NCBI GenBank assembly: GCA_030706405.1
Contig: JAUZOO010000002.1
Span: 65,167-129,166 of the forward strand
Length of the DNA: 64,000 nucleotides
From: Bacteroidota bacterium
GTDB taxonomy: Bacteria > Bacteroidota > Bacteroidia > Bacteroidales > JAAUTT01
Direction of reading: 5' to 3'
Shown: positions 32,967 through 43,429 of the stretch, in pieces
Layout of the letters: the number at the start of each line of letters is the position of its first letter
Numbering within the stretch: position 1 is the stretch's first letter
Notes under the pieces: generated by a model
The model's input: the letters and a program-made list of their open reading frames with translations, nothing else
Told to the model about the DNA's origin: nothing
Databases searched by the model: none
Program-made: the position numbers and the translations under genes

Positions 32967-34725
32967 AAGCCATACTATGCCGCAACTTTTTTGATAGCGA
33001 ATGGATAATGTTGGGGTCAATATCTTTAACATCGAGGATTAGCAGTCCGTCAAGCGAGTTGTTAAAATCCGGATCAACATTGAACGATATTATTTTACCA
33101 CCCAGCGAAAGATATTTCTTCAACATCACGGGCATACGGCTGTTGTCACTTTCTAAGTCGCTGATTACTTCATCAAGTTTATTGAGGTTATATGCTTTTT
33201 CGAGCAGGGTTTCGGTTTCTTCGCTGTAACGCACCGGTACAAAAGGGTTACGGGGTTTTACATAGCAGGCAAGGTTGTCGTTAAAGTAATTTTTCTTCAC
33301 AAAGTTTATCATTATTTGTTGTGAAAATACGGAGTACTTATTGCTTATGCTTACCGGTCCAACCAGATATTGATAATCAGGATTTTTAAGCAGAAAATAC
33401 AGGATACCTTTCCAAAGTAGAAACAACGACATGGGTTTTCGCTGGTATTCCTTAACAACAAACGATCGGCCAAGTTCTATCGACTGGCTGAATATTGACT
33501 GTAGTTTTTTGTCGATTTTAAATAGTGTCTGGATATAAAAACCGTTCATACCAAATTGCGAAATGATGTCAGCGCCTTTCCCGATGCGATAACCGCCCAC
33601 AATAGCCTGATTTTCTTCGTCCCAAATAAAAAGTTGGTGATAGTATAGATCGTATTCGTCGATATCGGTACTGCGATTTGTACCTTCCCCAACTTCGCGG
33701 AACGTTATTTCACGCAGCCTCCCAATTTCGTAAGTAATGTTGGGGATAAGGGGTGACGGCGCACAAAATATCGTATAGTGCTGATGGCGGAATAACTCAT
33801 AGTGACCGGCTATTTTTGCAATATCTACCATTAATAAATATCCGCTGATGGGTGCAATGATATCTTCGGCTTTTGCCGGACGTTTTTTCATATTAAAAAA
33901 TACTCCTATATCCTGTTTGGTTTCAAGGGCGTAAGTTCGGGCCCGCAAATATCGGCCATATTCTTCAATTTCGGGAAATTTTCGTTGTTCTTTAACCGAA
34001 ACAGAATTGCCTATGCTCACCTTAATAACCTTGTTTTGTTTATTAAGCATTTCCGAAGGAATGCGGGCGGTGCGCAACATTGGGTTTATTTTGCCCATAG
34101 CATGAAACAACCAACTGTTGCCACCTTCAAAATATACAGGGATGACCGGTACTTCTGCATTTTTTATGAATTTAAGGATGGAACTGTTCCAGGTCTTGTC
34201 GGAAATAAAATTGGCCTGGTTATGAAAGGTTGAAACTTCGCCTGCCGGGAAAATAGCCAACGGACGTCCCGAGCTTATATGTTGAAAAGCAGATTTTAGC
34301 CCTTGAAAACTGGATTGTGTTTCTTTATGCGATTCAAACGGGTTTACTGCAAATACATAGTCTTTTATTGGTTTAATATGATGAAACAAAAAGTTCCCCA
34401 TAATTTTAAAATCAGGCCTGATAGCCAGTATTTTATTTAAAAGAATTAAGCCTTCGATGCCGCCGAAAGGGTGATTGGCGATGAGAATGAACGAACCCTT
34501 TTCGGGGATACGAGCCAGACTGGTTTCGTCGATGTTAAACTTTATTTCTGCTTCAGCAAGCACAGCCTCAATAAATTCGGGGCCGGGTTTGTAACTATGG
34601 TTGCTATATATTTGGTTAATTTTATCGAATTGAAATACAGACATTAAGATTTTAGCCGTGTTTTTTCCACCAAACTTATCCAGTTTAGCTACTTTGATTA
34701 CATCGTTTGTTTGAATGAGTTCCAT
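32965..34725 (-). CDS. Bifunctional acyltransferase, OlsF-like (ornithine/amino-lipid synthase)
   Basis: 586 aa. N-terminal PlsC-type acyltransferase (ANHPFGGIEG) and C-terminal OlsB/GNAT-like N-acyltransferase (LFIWDEENQAIVGGYRIG). Confidence 0.7.
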   Translation of the reverse strand: MELIQTNDVIKVAKLDKFGGKNTAKILMSVFQFDKINQIYSNHSYKPGPEFIEAVLAEAEIKFNIDETSLARIPEKGSFILIANHPFGGIEGLILLNKILAIRPDFKIMGNFLFHHIKPIKDYVFAVNPFESHKETQSSFQGLKSAFQHISSGRPLAIFPAGEVSTFHNQANFISDKTWNSSILKFIKNAEVPVIPVYFEGGNSWLFHAMGKINPMLRTARIPSEMLNKQNKVIKVSIGNSVSVKEQRKFPEIEEYGRYLRARTYALETKQDIGVFFNMKKRPAKAEDIIAPISGYLLMVDIAKIAGHYELFRHQHYTIFCAPSPLIPNITYEIGRLREITFREVGEGTNRSTDIDEYDLYYHQLFIWDEENQAIVGGYRIGKGADIISQFGMNGFYIQTLFKIDKKLQSIFSQSIELGRSFVVKEYQRKPMSLFLLWKGILYFLLKNPDYQYLVGPVSISNKYSVFSQQIMINFVKKNYFNDNLACYVKPRNPFVPVRYSEETETLLEKAYNLNKLDEVISDLESDNSRMPVMLKKYLSLGGKIISFNVDPDFNNSLDGLLILDVKDIDPNIIHSLSKKLRHSMA

Positions 34726-34975
34726 ATTTATACAATATTAAAATGTTTCAAAGTAAGTCCCGACTTGTTAAGTGAACCTGTGGATAAGGTTAAGTTATTG
34801 TTTGGGATATAATAGTGTTTTTGATGCCGATTTTTGAGGATTCTGTGTAGCGAAAGCCTTTTGATTTTTTTATTTCTTGGGATTGTTTTTAGTGGTTATT
34901 CAAAAATTTGCTAAATATGTTAAGTTTAACTAAATTAGATAATTGTAATTTGAAAGAAAGTGAGTGTAGCCGATA

Positions 34976-35068
34976 TTAACATTAAATTTAACTTGGCTTA
35001 ACAAAATGGCAACAGTTGATTAATACCTGTAACATAAAAATAACTTTCCGTAAATGTTCAGGAAACAT
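34976..35068 (+). promoter_or_regulatory. Two Pho-box-like heptamer arrays in the divergent OlsF-like/porin intergenic region
   Basis: Distal array: TTAACAT-taaa-TTTAACT-tggc-TTAACAA (34976..35004). Proximal array: GTAACAT-aaaa-ATAACTT-tccg-TAAATGT-tcag-GAAACAT (35029..35068). Confidence 0.6.
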
Positions 35069-35125
35069 TCAGGTAGTTCTTTTGTGTCAGAATTTCATTC
35101 TAACCAAAAAATTAAAATTTAAACT

Positions 35126-36430
35126 ATGAAAAAGTCGAACATTTATTTATTGCTTTTTATCATTTGCAGTTTTGTTTCTGTTAGTGTAAATGCGCAGGAA
35201 ACAGAAAAAACAGACACCGTTATGCGTGTTTTAGAGCAACTCCAGTCAGATGTTGCTTTCTTAAAAAACTTGAAAGTTTCGGGATACGTTCAAGCCCAGG
35301 CTCAATTTGCTGATACTTTAGGTGCTAAGACAGATATGGCTGCTGGCAATTTCCCTACCGGATCAGATAAACGTTATTTAATTCGCCGCGGACGTTTAAA
35401 ATTTTTATATAGTGCCAGTCCGTTGAGTTCGGCAGCTATGCAGATCGATATTAGCGAATCGGGCGTTAAGACCAAAGAAATTTGGGCCAAATTTACCGAT
35501 CCTTTTGTAAACTGGTTTAGCTTAACTGCTGGTCTTCAAAATCGTCCTTTTGGTTTCGAAGTTGAATATTCCTCCGGTAACCTCGAAAGTCCTGAACGTG
35601 CCCGTATGAACCAATCTTTATTCAAAGATGAATACGATTTAGGTGCAATGCTTACCATTCAGGCTCCTAAAACTTCGCCTTATAATTTTCTTAAACTTGA
35701 TTTAGGTCTTTTCACCGGTTCTATCGAAAATACCAGTGGTATGGACTACAAGAAAGTTAAGGACTTCATTGGTCGTTTAAACTTTGCTAAATCATACCTT
35801 GATGAAAAACTTAAAGTTAGCGGCGATCTTTCTTATTACAATGGTGGTGTTCCTAACAATACCACTTCCATTTATAAAGTTCAGACAGCTAGCGGAAACC
35901 CTGTTTTTACAGCTAAAACAGTAAACAAATATGATAATATTCTTCGCGAATACTGGGGTGCTGATGTTCAGGTTTCTTATGCAGGCGAGTTAGGTTTGTC
36001 TACCTTCAGGGCTGAATATACTAAAGGTCAACAGGCATCAGCTGCGGGCGATATTAAAAACCCTACAGCATTGTTAGTTAACTCAGCAACTCCTGCTGTT
36101 GCTCAACCTCTTTATGTTCGTCAGGTTGAAGGTTTTTACCTGATGTATGTTCAGAATATTCTTCAGTCTCGCCACTCTATCGTTGTTAAATACGATATGT
36201 TTGATCCCAATACTAAGGTTAGCGGAAATCAGATTTCCAGTGCTAACGGTTTTACCGCCTCTGACATTAAATTCAATACTTGGGGTTTAGGTTATACCTG
36301 TCGCATCGACGCTAATACAAAACTGGTTATCTACCGCGATTTCATTAAAAATGAAAGCACTAAAATCTCAGGATACACTCAGGATGTTAAGGACAACGTT
36401 TGGACCATCCGTCTGCAATACAAATTCTAA
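35126..36430 (+). CDS. Phosphate-selective porin O/P family outer-membrane protein
   Basis: Signal peptide, beta-strand-rich, C-terminal RLQYKF. Located between Pho-box-like arrays and pstS2. Confidence 0.7.
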   Translation: MKKSNIYLLLFIICSFVSVSVNAQETEKTDTVMRVLEQLQSDVAFLKNLKVSGYVQAQAQFADTLGAKTDMAAGNFPTGSDKRYLIRRGRLKFLYSASPLSSAAMQIDISESGVKTKEIWAKFTDPFVNWFSLTAGLQNRPFGFEVEYSSGNLESPERARMNQSLFKDEYDLGAMLTIQAPKTSPYNFLKLDLGLFTGSIENTSGMDYKKVKDFIGRLNFAKSYLDEKLKVSGDLSYYNGGVPNNTTSIYKVQTASGNPVFTAKTVNKYDNILREYWGADVQVSYAGELGLSTFRAEYTKGQQASAAGDIKNPTALLVNSATPAVAQPLYVRQVEGFYLMYVQNILQSRHSIVVKYDMFDPNTKVSGNQISSANGFTASDIKFNTWGLGYTCRIDANTKLVIYRDFIKNESTKISGYTQDVKDNVWTIRLQYKF

Positions 36431-36506
36431 TACAACTAAAAGTTCCCGGATACACAAGCTCCGGAAACCTTCTTAAAGATTATAAAAACTTAATAAATAA
36501 AAGATT

Positions 36507-37328
36507 ATGAAAAAGTTATTATTTGTAGCATTAGCTTCTGTTGCTATGTTCAATGCCACCATGGCACAGTCGTTCAAAATCAAAGGAAGTGATACTTGCT
36601 TGCCTTTGATCCAGAAAGAATCGGAAGTTTATATGAAAGGACACAAAGGAACTTCAATTACCGTAGTTGGTGGTGGTTCGGGTGTTGGTATTGCAGCTCT
36701 GTTGTCGGGGTCAACGGATGTAGCTATGGCGTCGCGTAAAATGAAGATGGACGAAAAACTTAAAATGCAGGATGCCGGAAGAGCCGTTAAAGAAGTTGTT
36801 TTCGCTAACGACGCTATTGCTTTTATCGTAAATCCTGCCAATAAAGTTAGCCAGTTAACCCGCGAACAACTCGAAGGTATCTTCACCGGTAAAATCAAAA
36901 ATTGGAACCAGGTTGGTGGCGATAACATGCCTATCGTTGTTTACTGCCGTGAGTCCAGCTCTGGAACTTATGAGTTTGTGAAAGAAAGAATTCTTTTGAA
37001 TAAAAATTTTGCATCTAACGCATTGTTAATGCCTGCTACCGGAGCTATCGTACAGAGTGTAAGCCAAACCAAAGGTGCTATTGGTTATGTTGGTCTTGCT
37101 TATGTTGAAAAATCCGTAAAAGCTATTGGTGTGTCAAACAACAAAGGAAAATCTTTTGTACACCCTTCGCTCGAAACTGCAATGAATAAAACTTATCCTG
37201 TAACCCGTCCGCTGCAATTGTACTATCAGATAAAAGACGAAAAGAAGGTTTCGGCCTATATCGCTTATCTTCTCTCTGCCGAAGGTCAGAAGACTGTTAA
37301 AGCAGAAGGTTATGTACCTTTAAAATAG
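36507..37328 (+). CDS. pstS: Second phosphate-binding protein paralog
   Basis: Collinear with the 27276..28100 product and roughly two-thirds identical by eye. Confidence 0.9.
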   Translation: MKKLLFVALASVAMFNATMAQSFKIKGSDTCLPLIQKESEVYMKGHKGTSITVVGGGSGVGIAALLSGSTDVAMASRKMKMDEKLKMQDAGRAVKEVVFANDAIAFIVNPANKVSQLTREQLEGIFTGKIKNWNQVGGDNMPIVVYCRESSSGTYEFVKERILLNKNFASNALLMPATGAIVQSVSQTKGAIGYVGLAYVEKSVKAIGVSNNKGKSFVHPSLETAMNKTYPVTRPLQLYYQIKDEKKVSAYIAYLLSAEGQKTVKAEGYVPLK

Positions 37329-37365
37329 TACTGTCGATTGATTTAAATATCCTTTATAAAATAGA

Positions 37366-37414
37366 AAAAATCCCCCTTTTGTATATGGTTTATATATGTA
37401 AAAGGGGGATTTTT
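37366..37414 (+). terminator. Terminator after pstS2
   Basis: AAAAATCCCCCTTTT pairs with AAAAGGGGGATTTTT. Confidence 0.8.
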
Positions 37415-37468
37415 ATACCCTCCTTGATAATGTTAAATTAGTCGTAAATAATTGTAAAATAGTTTATT

Positions 37469-37987
37469 ATGAAAATAAAGTTGTTTTTTATATGTGTATT
37501 GTTCGGAACCTCCGGGTTATTACACGCACAAAATTTTAAGACCATAAGGATTGGAAACCAGATTTGGATGGCCGAGAATCTTAATGTTGTGGTTCCCGGA
37601 AGCTGGACCTATAACGGTAGCACTGAAAATGGCCGGAAATATGGCCGTCTTTACACTTGGGAAGCAGCAAAGAGGGCGTGTCCCGCAGGTTGGCATCTGC
37701 CTACCGATAAAGAGTGGACCGAATTACTCGATCGCCTTGGAGGCGAAGATGTTGCCGGAAAACAGTTGAAAGCTGGCGGAAACTCTGGGTTTAACGCCCT
37801 TTACGGTGGCCTGTCGGATGTAGGGAACTTCCGCCTACTAAATTCCTATGGCACGTTTTGGTCTGCCTCGAGCTACGATGCCGACCATGCTTGGTATTTC
37901 TATATTACGGCAGCCAATAGTAATGTAACCAAAACGTATTTTAAAAAGGCGTACGGATTTTCCGTGCGGTGTGTAAAGAATAAATAG
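37469..37987 (+). CDS. FISUMP-domain (Fibrobacter succinogenes major paralogous domain) secreted protein
   Basis: IGNQIWMAENLN, GRLYTW, CPAGWHLPTDKEW and GFSVRCVK motifs. Confidence 0.85.
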   Translation: MKIKLFFICVLFGTSGLLHAQNFKTIRIGNQIWMAENLNVVVPGSWTYNGSTENGRKYGRLYTWEAAKRACPAGWHLPTDKEWTELLDRLGGEDVAGKQLKAGGNSGFNALYGGLSDVGNFRLLNSYGTFWSASSYDADHAWYFYITAANSNVTKTYFKKAYGFSVRCVKNK

Positions 37988-38154
37988 GTTAGGCAAATTG
38001 CATATTCAAAAGCACTGTTGAGTTATTTTGTGAGATTCTTCAGTGCTTTGTCATTTTATTTAGATTAATCTGTTTTTATAAAGAGTAATAATACTATAAA
38101 TCAACCGTTTAGTTTTTTATAAGCTTGTTCGGTTTTTATGGTTTTTTTTAGCAA

Positions 38155-38190
38155 TTTGTTTGTATAGCTTAAAAAGTAAAAGTACTTTTG
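38155..38190 (+). promoter_or_regulatory. Bacteroidota-type promoter of the MgtE_N-CBS/NRAMP operon
   Basis: TTTG at 38159..38162 and TACTTTTG (TAnnTTTG) at 38183..38190, with 20-nt spacing. Confidence 0.55.
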
Positions 38191-38253
38191 CAGCGTTTAA
38201 AAAAATATAGCCCCATGGACGAAGGCCCTGAGAATATAGATTATTATTTATCG

Positions 38254-38312
38254 ATTTAGAAGGGATAAACCGTTTTTGGGATGCTCCTTCTAAATTTAAA
38301 CAAAGAAGGAGG
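38254..38312 (+). promoter_or_regulatory. Leader with mutually exclusive hairpins that expose or sequester a strong Shine-Dalgarno sequence
   Basis: ATTTAGAAGG (38254..38263) pairs with CCTTCTAAAT (38286..38295). Alternatively, CTCCTTCT (38284..38291) pairs with AGAAGGAG (38304..38311), the SD upstream of the ATG at 38319. Confidence 0.55.
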
Positions 38313-38318
38313 TTTATT

Positions 38319-39593
38319 ATGTCTTCGATTAAGACGTTTTATTTTAGCCGTATTTTAGGTATTAAAGTTATCAATGCAGCCGGCAAAGTTATTGGCAAAG
38401 TAAAAGACCTTTTATTAGATACCACTCCTATAAATCCGGACGATCCCATTGTACGCCCTAAAGTTGTTGGGGTGAAATTGAAGATTAATGGAGATTTTCA
38501 GGTATTCGACTTTCAGTATTTTGAAGTATCTAAGGTTAACCGTCGTATTCGCATAAGTTACGAAAAACTTGAAACTCTTTCCGAAACTGAGATAAATAAC
38601 GGACTTTTTCTGGCCGATGTCATTCTCGATAAGCAGATTGTAGATCTTAACGGTCGCAAACTCGTACGTGTTAATGATGTCCGTTTGGTAACCATTGCCG
38701 AAGGAACCTTTGCTATAGCCGTTGATGTTGGCATCGAAGGCCTGTTGCGGCGCATTGGGATTGCCAAAGAACTCAAGGCTGTACTTAAAGCAATGAGACT
38801 TAGCCTTCCTGCCAAGTTTATTCTTTGGGATGATGTTGAAACCATCGATTACAGCAATTTTAACATTAAACTGTCGAAAACATCATCGAAATTAAATACC
38901 CTTCACCCTTCGGACCTTGCTGATATTATCGAGGATTTAGGTAAACAATCGCGCGCAACCGTGTTCTCTTCGCTCGATGAAGAAACTGCCGCCGATGTAT
39001 TGGAAGAACTCGAAACTCATGCCCAGATTAATATCATCGAAAGCCTTCCGGTAGAAAAAATGGCCGATGTGCTTGAGAAGATGCCTGCCGATGAGGTTGC
39101 CGACATCCTCGATGAGTTGGAAGACGAAAAAGCCGAAATGCTGTTGAAGGAAATGGAAGCCGAATCGTCGCAGGAAGTTCGTGAACTACTCGAATATCCC
39201 GATAATACTGTGGGGAGCATCATGAGTACCGAGTTTGTATCATACTATGAATCGCTGACCGTAGGCGATGTTCTTGAGGATTTTCGTCAGAAAAAACCAG
39301 ACTCCGAAGCATTATATAATCTCTTTGTTACCAATGAGAAAGAAGAACTCGTGGCTACCGTTTCCTTACGCGATTTAATCATATCGTACCCCGAAGTCAA
39401 ACTTAGCGAGATTATGGAGGAAACTCCGGTAACGTTATTCGACGATCAAAAGGTGGACGAAATTGCCGAAATTATTTCGAAGTACAACCTGCTGGCGATC
39501 CCGGTGGTTGACCATCAGAACCAGTTGCAGGGAATGGTGGTTATCAACGACGTAGTTGAAGATTTAATTAACGAACGCAGAACGAACAGGTAA
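38319..39593 (+). CDS. Soluble PRC-barrel x2 + MgtE N-domain + CBS-pair protein (MgtE cytosolic sensor module without a transmembrane domain)
   Basis: LHPSDLADIIEDL...AADVLEEL...MPADEVADILDEL acidic MgtE_N repeats followed by a CBS pair. The protein ends where the MgtE membrane domain would begin. Confidence 0.8.
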   Translation: MSSIKTFYFSRILGIKVINAAGKVIGKVKDLLLDTTPINPDDPIVRPKVVGVKLKINGDFQVFDFQYFEVSKVNRRIRISYEKLETLSETEINNGLFLADVILDKQIVDLNGRKLVRVNDVRLVTIAEGTFAIAVDVGIEGLLRRIGIAKELKAVLKAMRLSLPAKFILWDDVETIDYSNFNIKLSKTSSKLNTLHPSDLADIIEDLGKQSRATVFSSLDEETAADVLEELETHAQINIIESLPVEKMADVLEKMPADEVADILDELEDEKAEMLLKEMEAESSQEVRELLEYPDNTVGSIMSTEFVSYYESLTVGDVLEDFRQKKPDSEALYNLFVTNEKEELVATVSLRDLIISYPEVKLSEIMEETPVTLFDDQKVDEIAEIISKYNLLAIPVVDHQNQLQGMVVINDVVEDLINERRTNR

Positions 39594-39609
39594 TAGGGGA
39601 GGTTGTAAG

Positions 39610-40860
39610 ATGTTTAAATTGGGAATTCAAAAAAATATTTTCAGAAGAATAGCTTTGTTTTTGGCTATTTTAGGACCAGGCATCATCACCGGGAGTGTTG
39701 ATAATGATGCCGGCGGAATAACGGTATATTCTGTGGCAGGGGCTACATACGGTTATAATCTACTTTGGACGCTGATTCCTGCGTTTATTGTGCTTGTGGT
39801 TATTCAGGAGATGAATGCTCGCATGGGGATTGTTACCGGTAAGGGACTGGCCGATTTAATTCGCGAAAATGCGGGGGTAAAAGTCACCTTTTTTATCTTC
39901 ATTGGATTGTTAATTGCCGATATTGGCAATACTACCACCGAATTTGCCGGGGTTGCGGGTAGTATGGAGGTTTTTGGTGTCAGTAAATATATTTCTGTTC
40001 CTATTGCTGCTGCTATGGTGTGGATATTGGTGGTGAAAGGGACGTATGTAATTGCTGAACGTATATTTCTCATATTCAGTGTGTCGTTGCTTACGTATGT
40101 GGTATCGGCGATTATGGGAAAACCTCATTGGGGCGAAATCGGTGCTGCAGTTGTTCATCCCCAGCTTCCTGTAAACTCTACCAGCCTGGCTATGATTATT
40201 GGGATTATCGGTACTACAATTGCCCCGTGGATGCAGTTTTACATGCAGTCGTCGGTTATTGAAAAGGGCTTGAAAATGAAAAATTTTAAGTATTCGATGA
40301 TCGATATTGTGGTGGGATGTGTTGCAACCGTGGTGGTGGCATTTTTTATCATCGTGGCGTGTGCCTCAACCCTTCACGAAAAGGGTATTAAAATTGAAGA
40401 AGCCAAGGATGCTGCGATGGCCCTGCAACCTCTGGCTGGAGCTCTTGCCGGACAGGTTTTTGCCTTTGGGTTGTTTATTGCATCCATATTTTCGGCGACT
40501 ATTTTGCCACTAGCTACGGCTTTTTATGTTTGTGAAGCATTTGGCTTTGAGGCTGGCATTGATAAAAAGTGGGAAGAAGCTCCGGAATTTTATGTTTTAT
40601 ATACAGCCATATTGGTTATTGCCGCGGCCATCATCCTTATTCCCAGCGCACCGTTAATAACCATTTCGGTATGGTCGCAGGTGCTCAATGGGTTGTTGTT
40701 ACCGGTGGTGCTGTTGTGTATGATTTTGCTAGTAAACAACAAGAAAATTATGGGCGAATACACTAACAAACCTTTAAATAATATTATTGGTTGGGGTGCT
40801 GTAATTGTGCTGATAGTATTGTCACTTATGCTATTGGTATTGCCATTGTTCAGTAAATAA
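39610..40860 (+). CDS. NRAMP/SLC11-family transporter with NRMT-type (Mg-transporter-like) site substitutions
   Basis: GPGIITGSVDNDAGG replaces the DPGN motif. GTTIAPWMQF replaces GAxxMPH. 416 aa, polytopic. Confidence 0.8.
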   Translation: MFKLGIQKNIFRRIALFLAILGPGIITGSVDNDAGGITVYSVAGATYGYNLLWTLIPAFIVLVVIQEMNARMGIVTGKGLADLIRENAGVKVTFFIFIGLLIADIGNTTTEFAGVAGSMEVFGVSKYISVPIAAAMVWILVVKGTYVIAERIFLIFSVSLLTYVVSAIMGKPHWGEIGAAVVHPQLPVNSTSLAMIIGIIGTTIAPWMQFYMQSSVIEKGLKMKNFKYSMIDIVVGCVATVVVAFFIIVACASTLHEKGIKIEEAKDAAMALQPLAGALAGQVFAFGLFIASIFSATILPLATAFYVCEAFGFEAGIDKKWEEAPEFYVLYTAILVIAAAIILIPSAPLITISVWSQVLNGLLLPVVLLCMILLVNNKKIMGEYTNKPLNNIIGWGAVIVLIVLSLMLLVLPLFSK

Positions 40861-40866
40861 ACTTTT

Positions 40867-40926
40867 TAAGACATAAACAAGAAGAGCGACAATGTTTTGA
40901 TTGCCGCTCTTCTTGTTTATGTCTTA
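40867..40926 (+). terminator. Long perfect hairpin after the NRAMP gene
   Basis: 22-bp perfect stem (40867..40888 with 40905..40926) and a 16-nt loop. There is no clear T-run. Confidence 0.6.
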
Positions 40927-41014
40927 TGCGTTCTTCGATTTATATTAAACTAAACCAATTTATCGTTTTGTTATTGAAAAAAGTAGTCTTATTTTTGACT
41001 TTCACACTCCGTTA

Positions 41015-41908
41015 ATGATTCATTATCTCAGCCATTATCAGATTGATAAAGAAAAATGGGACGAATGTATAGGTAATTCCCCCAACCGTTTGGTGTATGG
41101 CTTTGCGTGGTTCCTTGATATTGTTTCGCCAGGTTGGGAAGCTTTGGTAGAGGATGATTACCGAAGTGTTATGCCCTTGCCGTCGAAACAGAAATATGGG
41201 CTACATTATCTTATTCAACCACGGTTTACCCAGCAATTGGGCATTTTTAGCCCCCAGCCGGTAACCCGGGAAACAGTGCGATCTTTTTTAAGGCGTATTC
41301 CTAAAAAGTTTGTTTGGTGCAACATCAATCTAAACCAGGCAAATTGTGAGGAAACAATTTTCAAGTTTACGTTACGGACCAATTACGAACTGGATTTGCA
41401 GGCCGGATATGAGAACATAGTTAAACGTTACAACGAAAATACCCGACGGAATCTTAAAAAGGCCGCATCTTCGGGAATTAACGTTGAACTTTCCGATGAT
41501 ACAGCGTTTTTTGTTGAACTTTATCAACAACAGTCAAACGTAAAACACGAGGGGATTGCAATTGAGCAGTTTTATCAATTAATTCAAAAAAGTTTTGATA
41601 AGGGGATTGGAAGAATTGCGTTGGCTAAAAATGTCCGCAACGAAATTGTGGCCGGAGCTTTTTACTTGGAGGACAGGGAGCGGCTGATTTACTTGGCATC
41701 GTTTACCACTTCCTGGGGACAGGATGCTTCTGCCATGTTCCTGATTATGGACAGAATGATAGAAGGGAGTCTTTCTCAATTCAATATTTTTGATTTTGAA
41801 GGTTCGATGGTTCCCGGTATTGCCCGGTTTTTTAAAGGGTTTGGTGCAATACAAAGAGATTATCCGCAATTTTCTTATAAATTGGTTAATCCATTGTTGT
41901 TTGTTTAA
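41015..41908 (+). CDS. FemAB/CelD-like acyl-CoA N-acyltransferase-fold protein
   Basis: The C-terminal FDFEGSMVPGIARFFKGFGA motif resembles the Acetyltransf_6/FemAB families. Assignment is tentative. Confidence 0.45.
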   Translation: MIHYLSHYQIDKEKWDECIGNSPNRLVYGFAWFLDIVSPGWEALVEDDYRSVMPLPSKQKYGLHYLIQPRFTQQLGIFSPQPVTRETVRSFLRRIPKKFVWCNINLNQANCEETIFKFTLRTNYELDLQAGYENIVKRYNENTRRNLKKAASSGINVELSDDTAFFVELYQQQSNVKHEGIAIEQFYQLIQKSFDKGIGRIALAKNVRNEIVAGAFYLEDRERLIYLASFTTSWGQDASAMFLIMDRMIEGSLSQFNIFDFEGSMVPGIARFFKGFGAIQRDYPQFSYKLVNPLLFV

Positions 41909-41956
41909 CTATTTTGTTTAGTTTTATACTAAAAGTTATAATTAATTCAAGATTAA

Positions 41957-43429
41957 ATGTTAGCATTAAAATTTCTTTCGCATTACTGGAAATCGGTGTT
42001 TCGTAATGCTATCTGGCGAAGGAACCTGGGCTCTAAGATTATGATTGGTATCCTCTTTCTTTACTTTCTGGGAATTTTTATCGCACTAGGAATGTCTATC
42101 AAAAAGATACTGGCAGGTGTCGGCGGAAATCCGGTTACCGTTTTTAATTCGTACCTGATATGGTACTTTGTCATTGATTTATTGCTGCGATGCACCAGCC
42201 AATCATTGCCGACGATAGATGTTGTTCCTTATTTGCGGTTAAATATAAAACGAGGTAGTGTCGTTAAATATCTGTTGATAAAGGCTTTTGTCAGTGTGTT
42301 TAACTTTTTTCCCTGGATTGTACTTATTCCGTATATAATCAATGTTTTATCATATTCTGCAGGGCCCGGTGCTGTATTGTTTTTTGTTGTCGGTATGTTG
42401 CTGCTTATCATTTTGAACAATTACCTGGCAGTTTTTTTGAATTACCTTTCTCAACGTAACATTGCTTATTTCCTGATTCCGGTATTGTTGGCAACGGGTC
42501 TTTTTGCATTAAAGAAATCGGGTATTTCCGTTGAATCGTATTCGGCAAACCTTGGACGTCTCATTCTTAGTGGTAATGTTTGGTTGTTTATCTTGTTATT
42601 TGCCGCTATTGTGTTTGTGATATGGGCTTTGCAACGTATGCTCAGTGACAATTTTTATATCGACGATTTTAGAGCACGGAAAGAGAACAGGGCAGCTGTA
42701 GGGGTAATCGGAATGGGTGCATTTAATCGTTTTGGCCAAACTGGAAAATATATTGCATTGGAATTAAATATGTTACTCCGAAATAAGCGCACCCGGCAAG
42801 TACTTGTTTCGGTGGTGTTATTCTGGATAATTTTTGGCATTCAAATGTTGTATAATCCGCATAAAATATTCTTTCTGTTATTTGTTGTTTCCTTATCTTC
42901 TGTTAATTACGGACAGTTCTTATTTAGCTGGGAAAGTAGTTATTTTGACGGTATCATCTCCCGGAAAAATAACTTTGTTGATTATGTAAAGGCTAAATAT
43001 TATATCCTTTCGACATTGATAGTTCTTTCGTTTGTGCTGTTTTCAGGCGTGTCGCTAATCACCGGAAAAGTTGATTTCTTTATGTTATTGGCAATAACCT
43101 TGTTTTCATTGGGCATAGGTAATTTTTTCATTCTTTTCTTCGGAACTTACAATGATTCACGGATTTCTTTAAATCAAAGTCAGTTCTTTAATCATCAGGG
43201 CACACGGGCAAATACGTTTTTGCTGTCGTTAACGTTTATTCTTGTTCCACTGGGCGTTTATGGGTTAGCAATATGGCTTTTTAATGAGTTAGGAGCTAAA
43301 ATCATGCTTGGCGTTCCTGGTCTTATTATGTTGTTAACCCATAACTGGTGGATTTCCAATATTATCGCGCCTCGTTTCATGGCGCGTAAATACAAAAACC
43401 TCGAAGGTTTTCGTAAACTTCAATTTTAA
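41957..43429 (+). CDS. Polytopic membrane protein, putative permease partner of the downstream ABC ATPase (DUF5687-like)
   Basis: 490 aa with many hydrophobic helices. An 11-nt gap separates it from the ABC ATPase gene. Confidence 0.5.
   Translation: MLALKFLSHYWKSVFRNAIWRRNLGSKIMIGILFLYFLGIFIALGMSIKKILAGVGGNPVTVFNSYLIWYFVIDLLLRCTSQSLPTIDVVPYLRLNIKRGSVVKYLLIKAFVSVFNFFPWIVLIPYIINVLSYSAGPGAVLFFVVGMLLLIILNNYLAVFLNYLSQRNIAYFLIPVLLATGLFALKKSGISVESYSANLGRLILSGNVWLFILLFAAIVFVIWALQRMLSDNFYIDDFRARKENRAAVGVIGMGAFNRFGQTGKYIALELNMLLRNKRTRQVLVSVVLFWIIFGIQMLYNPHKIFFLLFVVSLSSVNYGQFLFSWESSYFDGIISRKNNFVDYVKAKYYILSTLIVLSFVLFSGVSLITGKVDFFMLLAITLFSLGIGNFFILFFGTYNDSRISLNQSQFFNHQGTRANTFLLSLTFILVPLGVYGLAIWLFNELGAKIMLGVPGLIMLLTHNWWISNIIAPRFMARKYKNLEGFRKLQF

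Follow-up and report, generated by a model that had tools for sequence, protein, structure and literature searches.

The closest described systems are the "mgtE-nramp operons" named in Fig. S5 of Shin et al. 2014 (PLoS Genet; PMC4072509), who found that beside most NrmT genes a homolog of the MgtE cytoplasmic domain is encoded, and who speculated that this partner either regulates by feedback from the cytoplasm or serves as a metal chaperone. Co-expression of Acp2976 with Acp2977 from A. capsulatum did not improve rescue (PMC4072509), so that an activating role of the partner is not supported by that study, and the A. capsulatum transporter was mainly a Mn carrier, with full rescue of a Mn defect and weak or partial rescue of a Mg defect (PMC4072509). 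NRMT-type transporters of the SLC11/NRAMP family also transport without any partner, as evidenced by complementation in B. subtilis (PMC4072509) and by EleNRMT in liposomes (PMC8806188). EleNRMT carries both Mg2+ and Mn2+ (PMC8806188), NRMT transport is uncoupled (Ramanadane 2022; PMC8806188), and the signature of the group is DxxG instead of DxxN on helix 1 together with TxxA/T instead of A/CxxM on helix 6 (PMC8806188). MgtE from T. thermophilus, in turn, shows Mg2+-dependent gating (Hattori 2007/2009; Maruyama 2018, PMC5882242), and its cytoplasmic region comprises residues 1-263 (PMC5882242). The initial annotation of the locus considered here had regarded a separate MgtE-type sensor encoded beside an NRMT as not previously described, a claim that has to be withdrawn, since the pairing and the idea of feedback had both been reported in 2014 (PMC4072509).

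The window, i.e., the whole stretch of 64,000 nucleotides of Bacteroidota DNA that was analyzed, contains a two-gene Mg2+ uptake operon of this already described kind. The gene pair with its 16-nt gap, as first annotated, was found again as two ORFs at the same coordinates, and the following features are assigned to the unit:

38184-38191, + strand: candidate Bacteroidetes-type -7 promoter box, TACTTTTG, read from the sequence and fitting TAnnTTTG
38215-38318, + strand: 5′ leader of gene 1, with a conserved short ORF and a predicted switch sequestering the Shine-Dalgarno sequence (SD)
38215-38259, + strand: leader ORF, a conserved short ORF of 14 codons plus stop, MDEGPENIDYYLSI
38253-38264, + strand: 5′ arm of predicted helix P1 (anti-anti-SD, an SD mimic), GATTTAGAAGGG, which holds the leader ORF stop at 38257-38259
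38284-38296, + strand: anti-SD segment, CTCCTTCTAAATT, common to helices P1 and P2 and pairing with either the 5′ arm or the SD
38304-38312, + strand: strong SD, AGAAGGAGG, 6 nt from the gene 1 ATG and sequestered in predicted helix P2
38319-39593, + strand: gene 1, a soluble PRC-PRC-MgtE_N-CBS protein of 424 aa with the second PRC barrel predicted, assigned from domain matches, fold matches, and Mg-site mapping
39610-40860, + strand: gene 2, an NRMT-type SLC11/NRAMP transporter of 416 aa, assigned from Pfam, the match to 7qia, and its motifs
40867-40926, + strand: long, near-perfect hairpin directly after the gene 2 stop, assigned from folding against shuffles

The pattern TAnnTTTG is the Bacteroidetes promoter consensus. 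The 3′ hairpin has a minimum free energy of -38.4 kcal/mol (z = -10.1; none of 200 shuffles was as stable) and is a probable terminator or 3′ stabilizer that closes the two-gene unit. Rfam matches to miRNA families and to the Thr leader at 40858-40941 are below threshold and reflect this same hairpin, and a below-threshold SpR14 match at 37341-37430 was dismissed.

The assignment of gene 2 is the most straightforward. The protein matches the Pfam Nramp family (PF01566) with E = 1.1e-96 over profile positions 2-356 of 357, and it aligns with EleNRMT (7qia) at E = 3.2e-111 and 45% identity, ungapped over 403 residues, the best MntH match being much weaker (~1e-25). Where DPGN is expected, TM1 reads VDNDAGGI (D33-A-G-G36), with D33 and G36 aligning to D55 and G58 of EleNRMT and the motif aligning with DPGN in MntH of D. 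radiodurans, and TM6 reads GTTIAPW (T202-T-I-A205-P-W207) in place of AxxMPH; both motifs are identical to those of EleNRMT. This bears out the NRMT-type reading that had been made from DAGG and TxxAPW, as the motifs match the published signature (PMC8806188) and the protein is closer to EleNRMT than to MntH-type NRAMPs. The equivalents of EleNRMT D55, G58, T224, E133, and Q379 are all conserved and invariant in the alignment. The tryptophan at 207, in the position of the first TM6b histidine, is consistent with the NRMT mode of transport, in which Mg2+ (and Mn2+) but not Ca2+ are carried without proton coupling. Gene 2 has no cytosolic domain.

Judged from its sequence, gene 1 stems from an MgtE subfamily bearing PRC barrels and, with the pore lost, corresponds to the regulatory part on the cytosolic side. 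Pfam places MgtE_N at aa 195-296 (E = 9.6e-28), with a CBS pair following at aa ~297-417 (two domains, E = 3.7e-16); a short basic tail at aa 418-424 (NERRTNR) closes the protein. No MgtE pore domain (PF01769) is matched by Pfam, and TIGR00400 (mgtE) covers only profile positions 19-254 of 450 with 171 bits, below its cutoff of 232.75, so that gene 1 is not an MgtE channel. Homologs are termed "magnesium transporter" in some annotation sources. As the C-terminus aligns to approximately residue 260 of T. thermophilus MgtE, the cytoplasmic region of which is residues 1-263, gene 1 ends where the pore would start; Pfam, TIGR00400, and this alignment thus agree with the domain composition first proposed, and the acidic nature of the N-domain is equally substantiated by a count of 31 D+E in 104 residues. 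The fold matches 8gpv, 2yvy, and 8gps have target-normalized TM-scores of 0.81-0.88. Full-length PRC-MgtE proteins with the same conserved signature exist and were counted in favor of a channel origin. As a pore-less homolog of N-domain and CBS pair that adjoins nrmT, the protein fits the MgtE-like accessory of nrmT operons.

The Mg2+ sites of T. thermophilus MgtE (PMC5882242) were mapped onto the gene 1 family (n = 73), and five of the six acidic ligand positions of sites Mg4-Mg7, in the N-domain and CBS pair, are kept in gene 1. E59 corresponds to D226 of gene 1 (73/73), D91 to D258 (D in 57/73), D95 to D262 (71/73), D247 to D411 (72/73), and D250 to E414, which is acidic in all 73. The exception is D226 of T. 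thermophilus MgtE, to which N390 corresponds, the residue being Asn in 70 of the 73 family members; D226N is one half of the D226N/D250A double mutation that was used experimentally to disable the Mg5 site. Gene 1 lacks the two plug-helix ligands (E258/D259), the basic tail standing in their place, and the acidic plug-helix motif is lost in 6/6 of the soluble proteins examined and kept in 6/6 of the full-length ones. From these alignments, we infer that the gene 1 protein binds Mg2+ at the retained positions.

The N-terminal region carries a PRC-barrel extension of ~190 aa, as it does in the majority of the 150 top-ranking family representatives, which are likewise ~420 aa long. PRC barrels are protein-protein interaction modules, and the H subunit of the photosynthetic reaction center covers a membrane complex on its cytoplasmic side. 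Two such barrels had been claimed for gene 1. The first (aa 1-~90) stands, with a Pfam PRC (PF05239) match at residues 6-35 that scores 24.2 bits in the whole protein and 30.0 bits in the isolated half (cutoff 21.2), and with fold matches to RC-H, MTH1859, and the RimM C-domain. The second (aa ~95-185) finds no Pfam PRC match in either the whole protein or the isolated half, hhalign gives no significant similarity between the two N-terminal halves (E = 0.14), and a profile of the second half found no match among PDB sequences. PRC matches do occur at the corresponding position in 2 of 20 family members (E ~ 0.009) and at residues 92-131 of the distant homolog P0374, and an AF2 model of residues 1-190 (pLDDT 85, pTM 0.80) aligns over ~200 columns to the chains of 8qzo, the archaeal PRC-barrel proteins CdpB1/CdpB2, with E = 2e-6. 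The second barrel is a predicted one, which rests on the AF2 fold match, the two family members, and P0374. CdpB1/CdpB2 (8qzo, 8onw) and the reaction-center H subunit are the best fold matches for residues 1-190, at 11-20% identity and with a large rmsd on relative domain orientation; gene 1 differs from these proteins by an added helical pair (aa 139-158), and its cellular context is unrelated. The suggestion that the PRC barrels dock on the NRMT is weakened, since the same PRC module, with its conserved signature, is also present in full-length MgtE channels that have a pore of their own.

The survey of synteny for which the initial annotation had called found gene 1 and NRMT paired in 78 of 78 informative Bacteroidota-type loci, with a stop-to-start spacing of mostly -1 to 24 nt, and the genes of three distant homologs (30-34% identity; L081/L082, L083, and L084) are each followed by an NDAGG-type Nramp gene. 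Because the genes flanking the operon vary among the loci, the gene pair is to be taken as the unit. The scan of contigs, made with a profile from an alignment that included EleNRMT, yielded close relatives only, almost all labeled Bacteroidota; the cross-phylum context is taken from five contig look-ups.

In the model that we favor, with moderate confidence, the locus is a Mg2+ uptake operon in which a remodeled NRMT is combined with a pore-less MgtE sensor giving feedback in trans. The DxxG/TxxA site of the transporter would accept Mg2+ in its hydrated form, and also Mn2+, with transport probably not coupled to protons, and at high cytosolic Mg2+ the gene 1 module would close up as it does in MgtE and then restrain the NRMT. 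Feedback, which in MgtE and CorA comes from covalently attached sensor domains, would thereby be supplied to a uniporter that has no gating otherwise, and gating should be physiologically useful since NRMT transport is uncoupled. The short basic tail that replaces the plug helix is a candidate for a new contact. Trans-acting Mg-dependent regulation of the NRMT by the gene 1 protein is a reasonable hypothesis, in favor of which were counted the strict synteny, the tight spacing of the two genes, the Mg-ligand positions kept at the N/CBS interface, and the M-box upstream of a distant ortholog operon, and of which the physical contact and the direction of regulation are the parts that we infer. 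Counted against gating were the activity of NRMTs on their own, the neutral effect of partner co-expression, the Asn at the D226 position, and the loss of the plug-helix ligands.

Among the alternatives, the one that survives best, unlikely as we consider it, has gene 1 as a co-expressed buffer or chaperone of divalent cations, or as a Mg signal to some other target, which does not gate the NRMT and is linked to it by a shared need when Mg2+ is scarce. It agrees with the "metal chaperone" option of Shin et al. 2014, with the transport that proceeds without partner (Shin 2014; PMC8806188), with the very acidic MgtE_N region counted above, and with the presence of the highly conserved second PRC-like region in full-length MgtE as well, which hence is not an NRMT-specific interface. 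The adjacency of the two genes is, however, maintained down to 30% identity and across differently regulated lineages, which is more typical of interacting subunits, and the protein is built like a conformational switch and not like a storage protein.

Less probable again is an arrangement in which the pair handles Mn2+, or Mn2+ and Mg2+, and the sensor answers mainly to Mn2+ or, via its CBS domains, to Mg-ATP or adenine nucleotides. CBS pairs can also sense nucleotides, and the CBS domains of MgtE bind ATP, as in 5x9g, which is among the fold matches of gene 1; the pattern of rescue by the A. capsulatum ortholog and the transport of Mn2+ by EleNRMT point the same way. Against it stand the binding-site signature, which is identical to that of the Mg2+-carrying EleNRMT, the M-box Mg riboswitch before a distant ortholog, the occurrence of the same leader before CorA genes, and the presence of CorA genes next to the operon, all of which point to Mg2+. 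That gene 1 is one half of a split MgtE, with a pore-only MgtE encoded elsewhere and the NRMT merely co-regulated, is very improbable, for while its closest fused relatives are complete PRC-MgtE channels, one of which adjoins an NRMT in L085, tblastn detected no MgtE pore domain either in the window (64 kb) or, for any of 80 loci, up to ~6 kb away from the operon, and the acidic plug-helix motif, by which the sensor is coupled to the pore, is lost from the soluble proteins.

Besides the in trans feedback by gene 1 that we favor, expression of the operon is probably Mg-controlled as well, via the leader. The conserved leader peptide together with the RNA switch appears to be a new part of the locus, no description of this leader having been found in the literature. 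Of 72 related leaders, 70 contain a short ORF that begins with M-D/E; it precedes a Mg2+ importer and is rich in D/E/P after the Met, as in MgtL, and by this analogy it looks like an MgtL-like Mg-sensing leader. Codons 3-5 show variability with a 3-nt period, with all four Gly codons and three Pro codons in use. The motif (M-D-E/D-G-P-A...) is unique in the window, where 0 occurrences are expected by chance, and all 50 of its matches in 80 loci lie upstream of gene 1 and nowhere else. On two other contigs this leader stands in front of CorA genes, and CorA genes adjoin the operon in 4 loci.

With regard to the RNA, no consensus structure emerged from RNAalifold when 64 leaders were aligned with MAFFT; because variation in loop length had misaligned the helix arms, alignment-free folding was used. 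The AAGGAGG of the SD is >90% conserved in the alignment, and the duplex of anti-SD and SD averages -14.3 kcal/mol over 70 leaders (mean z = -2.4), with z < -1.64 in 51/70. The P1 5′ arm pairs with 38285-38296 once the SD is omitted from the fold, and the duplex given for this arm in the window has -14.0 kcal/mol (z = -3.3). When the arm is fixed relative to the leader ORF stop the signal is weak (mean z = -0.76), a placement that fails with early stops; folding without the SD gave the clearer P1 result. Equilibrium folding of whole leaders predicts a largely paired SD in all states (probabilities of being unpaired of 0.13, 0.30, and 0.09), so that the switch is supported only as a kinetic or co-transcriptional model and not thermodynamically.

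The proposed switch would operate as follows. The leader ORF, with its acidic, proline-containing N-terminus (M-D-E/D-G-P-A), would end within the SD-mimic arm of P1, the helix that competes with the SD-sequestering P2. Under Mg2+-replete conditions the ORF would be read through, the terminating ribosome would melt P1, and the anti-SD would capture the SD, turning the operon off. At low Mg2+, translation would be aborted early, as with MgtL, P1 would persist, and the SD would be free. A search for the M-box (RF00380, ykoK) found no match at E ≤ 1 in 34000-42000, while an M-box of 130.6 bits lies directly upstream of the distant ortholog operon in L081/L082; upstream of the other distant operons (L083-L088) there is neither a clear M-box nor a clear D/E/P-rich leader ORF. 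The leader may be a functional replacement for the M-box of orthologous operons in other phyla. It is a tentative reading, possible but somewhat short of probable, that this previously undescribed leader, working as proposed above, controls the import of Mg2+ in Bacteroidota by members of two or more unrelated families, namely CorA and the PRC-MgtE_N-CBS/NRMT operon.

The gene pair adds little by itself, as both its association and the idea of gating were published in 2014. What the survey does is sharpen a twelve-year-old question on the function of the partner, which arises because NRMT, unlike MgtE and CorA, lacks a sensor domain of its own: the partner is more than a small "MgtE fragment", namely a PRC-PRC-MgtE_N-CBS protein of ~420 aa (its second PRC barrel predicted) that descends from a PRC-bearing MgtE subfamily, and what changes along with the loss of the pore is the plug helix, the acidic residues of which give way to a basic tail. 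Of greater importance than the gene pair could be the leader. Ribosomes of Bacteroidota are thought to use Shine-Dalgarno pairing little, and a conserved strong SD with an anti-SD and a leader peptide before Mg2+ importers would exemplify Mg2+-responsive translational control in this phylum.

In comparison with the known systems, the order of genes is that of the C. acetobutylicum CA_C0685 operon and of A. capsulatum ACP2976/ACP2977, in which a gene for the homolog of the MgtE cytoplasmic domain likewise lies directly upstream of nrmT. The M-box described by Shin et al. 2014 recurs before the distant ortholog operon, whereas the Bacteroidota member has none and carries, in its place, the leader with its ORF and SD-sequestering helices. 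With EleNRMT (PDB 7qia), gene 2 shares the DxxG/TxxA site, the Trp for the first TM6b His, and the equivalents of E133 and Q379, the second TM6b His being Asn in EleNRMT and Met in gene 2. EleNRMT was studied alone; CBS domains, operon, and genomic context are absent from the text of that paper, which mentions MgtE only as an unrelated Mg2+ transporter (PMC8806188). T. thermophilus MgtE (2yvy/2zy9) has the same fold of N-domain and CBS pair (target-normalized TM-score 0.81, E = 3.6e-34) but differs from gene 1, which has no pore, no plug-helix ligands (Mg2/Mg3), a basic C-terminal tail, a PRC region, predicted to be tandem, added at its N-terminus, and Asn as the equivalent of D226.

For the leader, the nearest comparison is MgtL of mgtA in Salmonella and E. 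coli, likewise a short ORF that leads a Mg2+ importer and is followed by alternative RNA helices. In MgtL, as stated in a passage of a bioRxiv preprint (10.1101/2021.02.02.429294) that cites Chadani 2017, the D/E/P-rich N-terminal sequence leads to intrinsic destabilization of the ribosome at low Mg2+. The acidic, proline-rich stretch after the Met reads MEPDPT in MgtL and MDEGPA here. The two share no sequence homology, which would not be expected to be meaningful between peptides of 14-17 aa, and they come from different phyla, so that the leader is filed as one that works like MgtL and not as a member of its family. The predicted output differs as well, being translational here, by SD sequestration, and transcription attenuation or Rho in the case of MgtL.

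The two plus-strand ORFs described by the initial annotation, with a spacer of 16 nt between them, were borne out, as was its reading of the first as the MgtE N-domain and CBS pair without a pore.

38319-39593, plus strand: gene 1, ORF of 424 aa
39610-40860, plus strand: gene 2, ORF of 416 aa

The gene 1 protein matches the Pfam families PRC (residues 6-35) and MgtE_N (residues 195-296, E=9.6e-28) and two CBS domains, with no Pfam match to the MgtE pore domain, and it covers only positions 19-254 of 450 in the NCBIfam mgtE model, with a score under the cutoff. The closest solved structure is the cytosolic domain of T. thermophilus MgtE (2yvy, E=3.6e-34, residues 192-417), and superposition of the AF2 model (pLDDT 80) on cytosolic domains of MgtE gives target-normalised TM-scores of 0.81-0.88. 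The claim of two PRC barrels stood directly for the first. The second has no Pfam match in this protein, and the two N-terminal halves show no significant similarity to each other; it is indicated by the model of residues 1-190 (pLDDT 85, pTM 0.80), whose entire length is matched first by chains of the archaeal PRC-barrel CdpB1/CdpB2 complex and next by reaction-centre H subunits, MTH1859 and RimM, and by PRC matches at the corresponding position in a few relatives.

Gene 2 matches Pfam Nramp with E=1.1e-96 and the Eggerthella lenta NRMT structure 7qia with E=3.2e-111 over 403 ungapped residues, with MntH at about 1e-25. Its site residues, D33-A-G-G36 and T202-T-I-A205-P-W207, show the DxxG-TxxA/T pattern that defines NRMTs according to Ramanadane et al. 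(PMC8806188), which confirms the earlier motif reading.

The gene 1 family gave more than 5,600 matches in a word-indexed search, nearly all of 420-427 aa with identical domains, and an exhaustive search returned 749 clusters (50% identity) at E<=1e-30, the majority of which are 405-450 aa long and align to the query from end to end at 30-40% identity. With the NRMT as query, 80 genome loci from species representatives were recovered; in 78 of them a gene 1 homolog lies directly upstream of the NRMT, mostly with -1 to 24 nt between stop and start, and the remaining two loci begin at the NRMT itself, so that the pairing asked after in the initial annotation is kept. None of the genes flanking the operon in the window (porin, PstS-like protein, Fib_succ_major protein, FemAB-like protein, DUF5687) recurs in the other loci compared, and the pair is therefore the conserved unit. 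An NDAGG-type Nramp also follows each of three more distant soluble homologs, which share only 30-34% identity and lie on four contigs (L081/L082, L083, L084).

The operon type is known, and this locus adds a Bacteroidota member to it. The arrangement had been thought undescribed, but both the pairing and the feedback idea are already found in Shin et al. 2014 (PMC4072509), who named the NrmT group; the finding is real, was read correctly at the level of sequence and is biologically sensible, with its central idea already published as a hypothesis. In the same study, the transporter complemented without its partner, rescue was no better when the A. capsulatum partner was co-expressed, and the A. 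capsulatum transporter was chiefly a Mn carrier. The 2022 structural paper (PMC8806188) mentions MgtE solely in the role of an unrelated Mg2+ transporter and uses none of the terms CBS, operon or genomic context.

With the ligand list of Maruyama et al. 2018 (PMC5882242), a HMMER alignment to 2yvy and the numbering checked on seven isoleucine anchors, five of six N-domain/CBS-pair ligand positions are retained in gene 1. T. thermophilus E59 corresponds to D226 (73/73 family members), D91 to D258 (57 Asp and 14 Asn among 73), D95 to D262 (71/73), D247 to D411 (72/73) and D250 to E414 (acidic in 73/73); the exception is T. thermophilus D226, which corresponds to N390 (Asn in 70/73). This pattern is compatible with Mg2+ causing the N-domain to close on the CBS pair, and is no proof of it. 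A simple split MgtE, with gene 1 as one half and the pore encoded separately, is argued against by the lack of any MgtE pore-only gene in the window or in the vicinity of the operon across the 80 loci. A brake on the NRMT that acts in trans would, as we infer, be physiologically sensible, because NRMT transport is uncoupled (PMC8806188) and the NRMT has no cytosolic domain of its own. The negative co-expression result of 2014 does not test this feedback, since an inhibitor is not expected to improve rescue.

As to its origin, roughly one in ten of the best 150 gene 1 family representatives are 585-651 aa long, and four of six such proteins scanned carry PRC, MgtE_N, CBS and the pore domain PF01769, which makes them complete channels of the MgtE type that bear the N-terminal extension of gene 1.

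Full-length PRC-MgtE channels of about 600 aa (cluster representative, contig):
P0276, L085: adjoining NRMT, starting 16 nt after the channel gene
P0284, L087: no adjoining NRMT
P0313, L086: no adjoining NRMT
P0294, L088: contig too short to tell

The adjacency in L085 suggests how the pore-less partner could have arisen, from an operon of mgtE and nrmT. The most conserved stretch of gene 1 in the joint alignment is the second-barrel signature (LDKQIVDxxGRxVVRVNDxxL ... VDVGxxGLLRRLG ... W), and because it is equally conserved in soluble proteins and full-length channels, the PRC module is a feature of this MgtE subfamily rather than an adaptation to NRMT docking, which weakens the earlier suggestion of a docking surface. 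The feature that tracks pore loss in the aligned sequences is the C-terminus: the acidic plug-helix motif E-x-x-x-E/Q-D-I/L-S, equivalent to T. thermophilus E258/D259 of sites Mg2/Mg3 (PMC5882242), is retained in all six full-length proteins, and at this point all six soluble proteins end in a short basic tail (NERRTNR, SRRKTR, KRRLPKTG...), a candidate new contact surface.

39570-39590, plus strand: basic tail NERRTNR of gene 1 (aa 418-424)

Some observations lie to the side of this argument. Directly 3' of gene 2 is a near-perfect 26-bp hairpin (40867-40926, -38.4 kcal/mol, z=-10) without a clear U-tract, from which several sub-threshold Rfam matches to miRNA families and a Thr leader arise; these were rejected. 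The upstream neighbours at 35126-37987 encode a Porin_O_P-like porin, a protein of PstS-like phosphate-binding fold and a Fib_succ_major-domain protein, and since they are not conserved beside the operon in other genomes, a link to phosphate is probably coincidental. Operon or NRMT copies 82-84% identical to Bacteroidota ones occur in MAGs labelled Verrucomicrobiota (L078, which also lacks the leader) and Methylococcaceae (P0204), and could reflect mis-binning or recent transfer.

Upstream of gene 1, where neither an M-box nor any other Rfam family was matched, lies a leader that is conserved across loci whose neighbouring genes are not.

38184-38318, plus strand: conserved 5' leader with short ORF, SD-mimic arm, anti-SD and strong SD
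38215-38259, plus strand: leader ORF MDEGPENIDYYLSI, stop codon inside the SD-mimic arm
38253-38264 with 38285-38296, plus strand: helix of SD-mimic arm and anti-SD
38284-38291 with 38304-38311, plus strand: competing helix of anti-SD and SD
38304-38312, plus strand: strong Shine-Dalgarno AAGGAGGTG of gene 1

Of 72 leaders, 70 have a short ORF of 10-23 codons that starts 93-123 nt 5' of gene 1 and mostly reads M-D-(E/D)-G-P-A... (variants MEEGSS, MDPYPA, MDGDPA). The entropies at positions 1/2/3 of codons 3-5 are 0.40/0.59/1.59, 0.83/0.91/1.87 and 0.73/0.40/1.43, with all four Gly and three Pro codons in use, a three-base periodicity that indicates selection on the translated peptide. The AAGGAGG of the SD is more than 90% conserved and is sequestered by the upstream anti-SD (mean -14.3 kcal/mol, mean z=-2.4; z<-1.64 in 51/70 leaders). 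Folding without the SD yields a long hairpin (mean -15.7 kcal/mol, mean z=-2.5; z<-1.64 in 52/70), and in 61/70 this hairpin takes up 60% or more of the anti-SD nucleotides. Where at least 40% of the anti-SD is captured, the capturing arm overlaps the ORF stop or lies within 12 nt downstream in 59 of 65 leaders, which in the modelled folds would place it within the footprint of a terminating ribosome. The SD-sequestered form dominates at equilibrium in every modelled state, so the switch is a kinetic model only. Bacteroidota generally make little use of SD pairing and occlude the 16S anti-SD, which makes a conserved strong SD unusual here; its main role may be that of a pairing partner, or it may serve in special ribosome states.

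The MDEGPA-type motif is unique within the window and, in the 80 loci, is found only before gene 1 (50/50 matches). In a metagenome scan, among the low-GC matches listed with a short ORF, at least 13 precede gene 1 homologs and at least 2 precede CorA-family genes, one of which (L095) has the same SD-mimic, anti-SD and SD layout as the window. CorA also adjoins the operon in four genome loci, forming small Mg-transporter clusters.

L095 934-1062 and L173 1084-1350: MDEGPA leader ORF before a CorA-family gene, low-GC metagenome contigs (PF01544, E=8e-48 and 8e-25)
L004 2210-3136, L009 7425-8351 and L021 7411-8337: CorA immediately 3' of the NRMT, same strand, about 170 nt (two labelled Prolixibacteraceae)
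L061 3438-4352, minus strand: CorA upstream, opposite strand to the operon

No published description of the Bacteroidota leader was found in a literature of incomplete coverage. A leader-peptide/SD switch common to CorA appears to be the foremost new point, next to the tandem PRC extension, the origin in a PRC-MgtE channel subfamily and the exchange of plug helix for basic tail; all, for gene 1 and leader alike, are computational leads to be treated as hypotheses.

Among known systems, the operon of a 34%-identical gene 1 homolog and NRMT has, immediately before it, an M-box riboswitch (RF00380, 130.6 bits; L081 355-521 and L082 248-414), the arrangement described by Shin et al., and different lineages therefore place different Mg-responsive leaders on the same operon. 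According to a preprint (bioRxiv 10.1101/2021.02.02.429294), translation of N-terminal D/E/P-rich sequences aborts more readily at low Mg2+, by which MgtL (MEPDPT) controls mgtA. The Bacteroidota leader contains the same ingredients and sits where the M-box sits in the operon of the other lineage, and by analogy it resembles an MgtL-type Mg-sensing leader.
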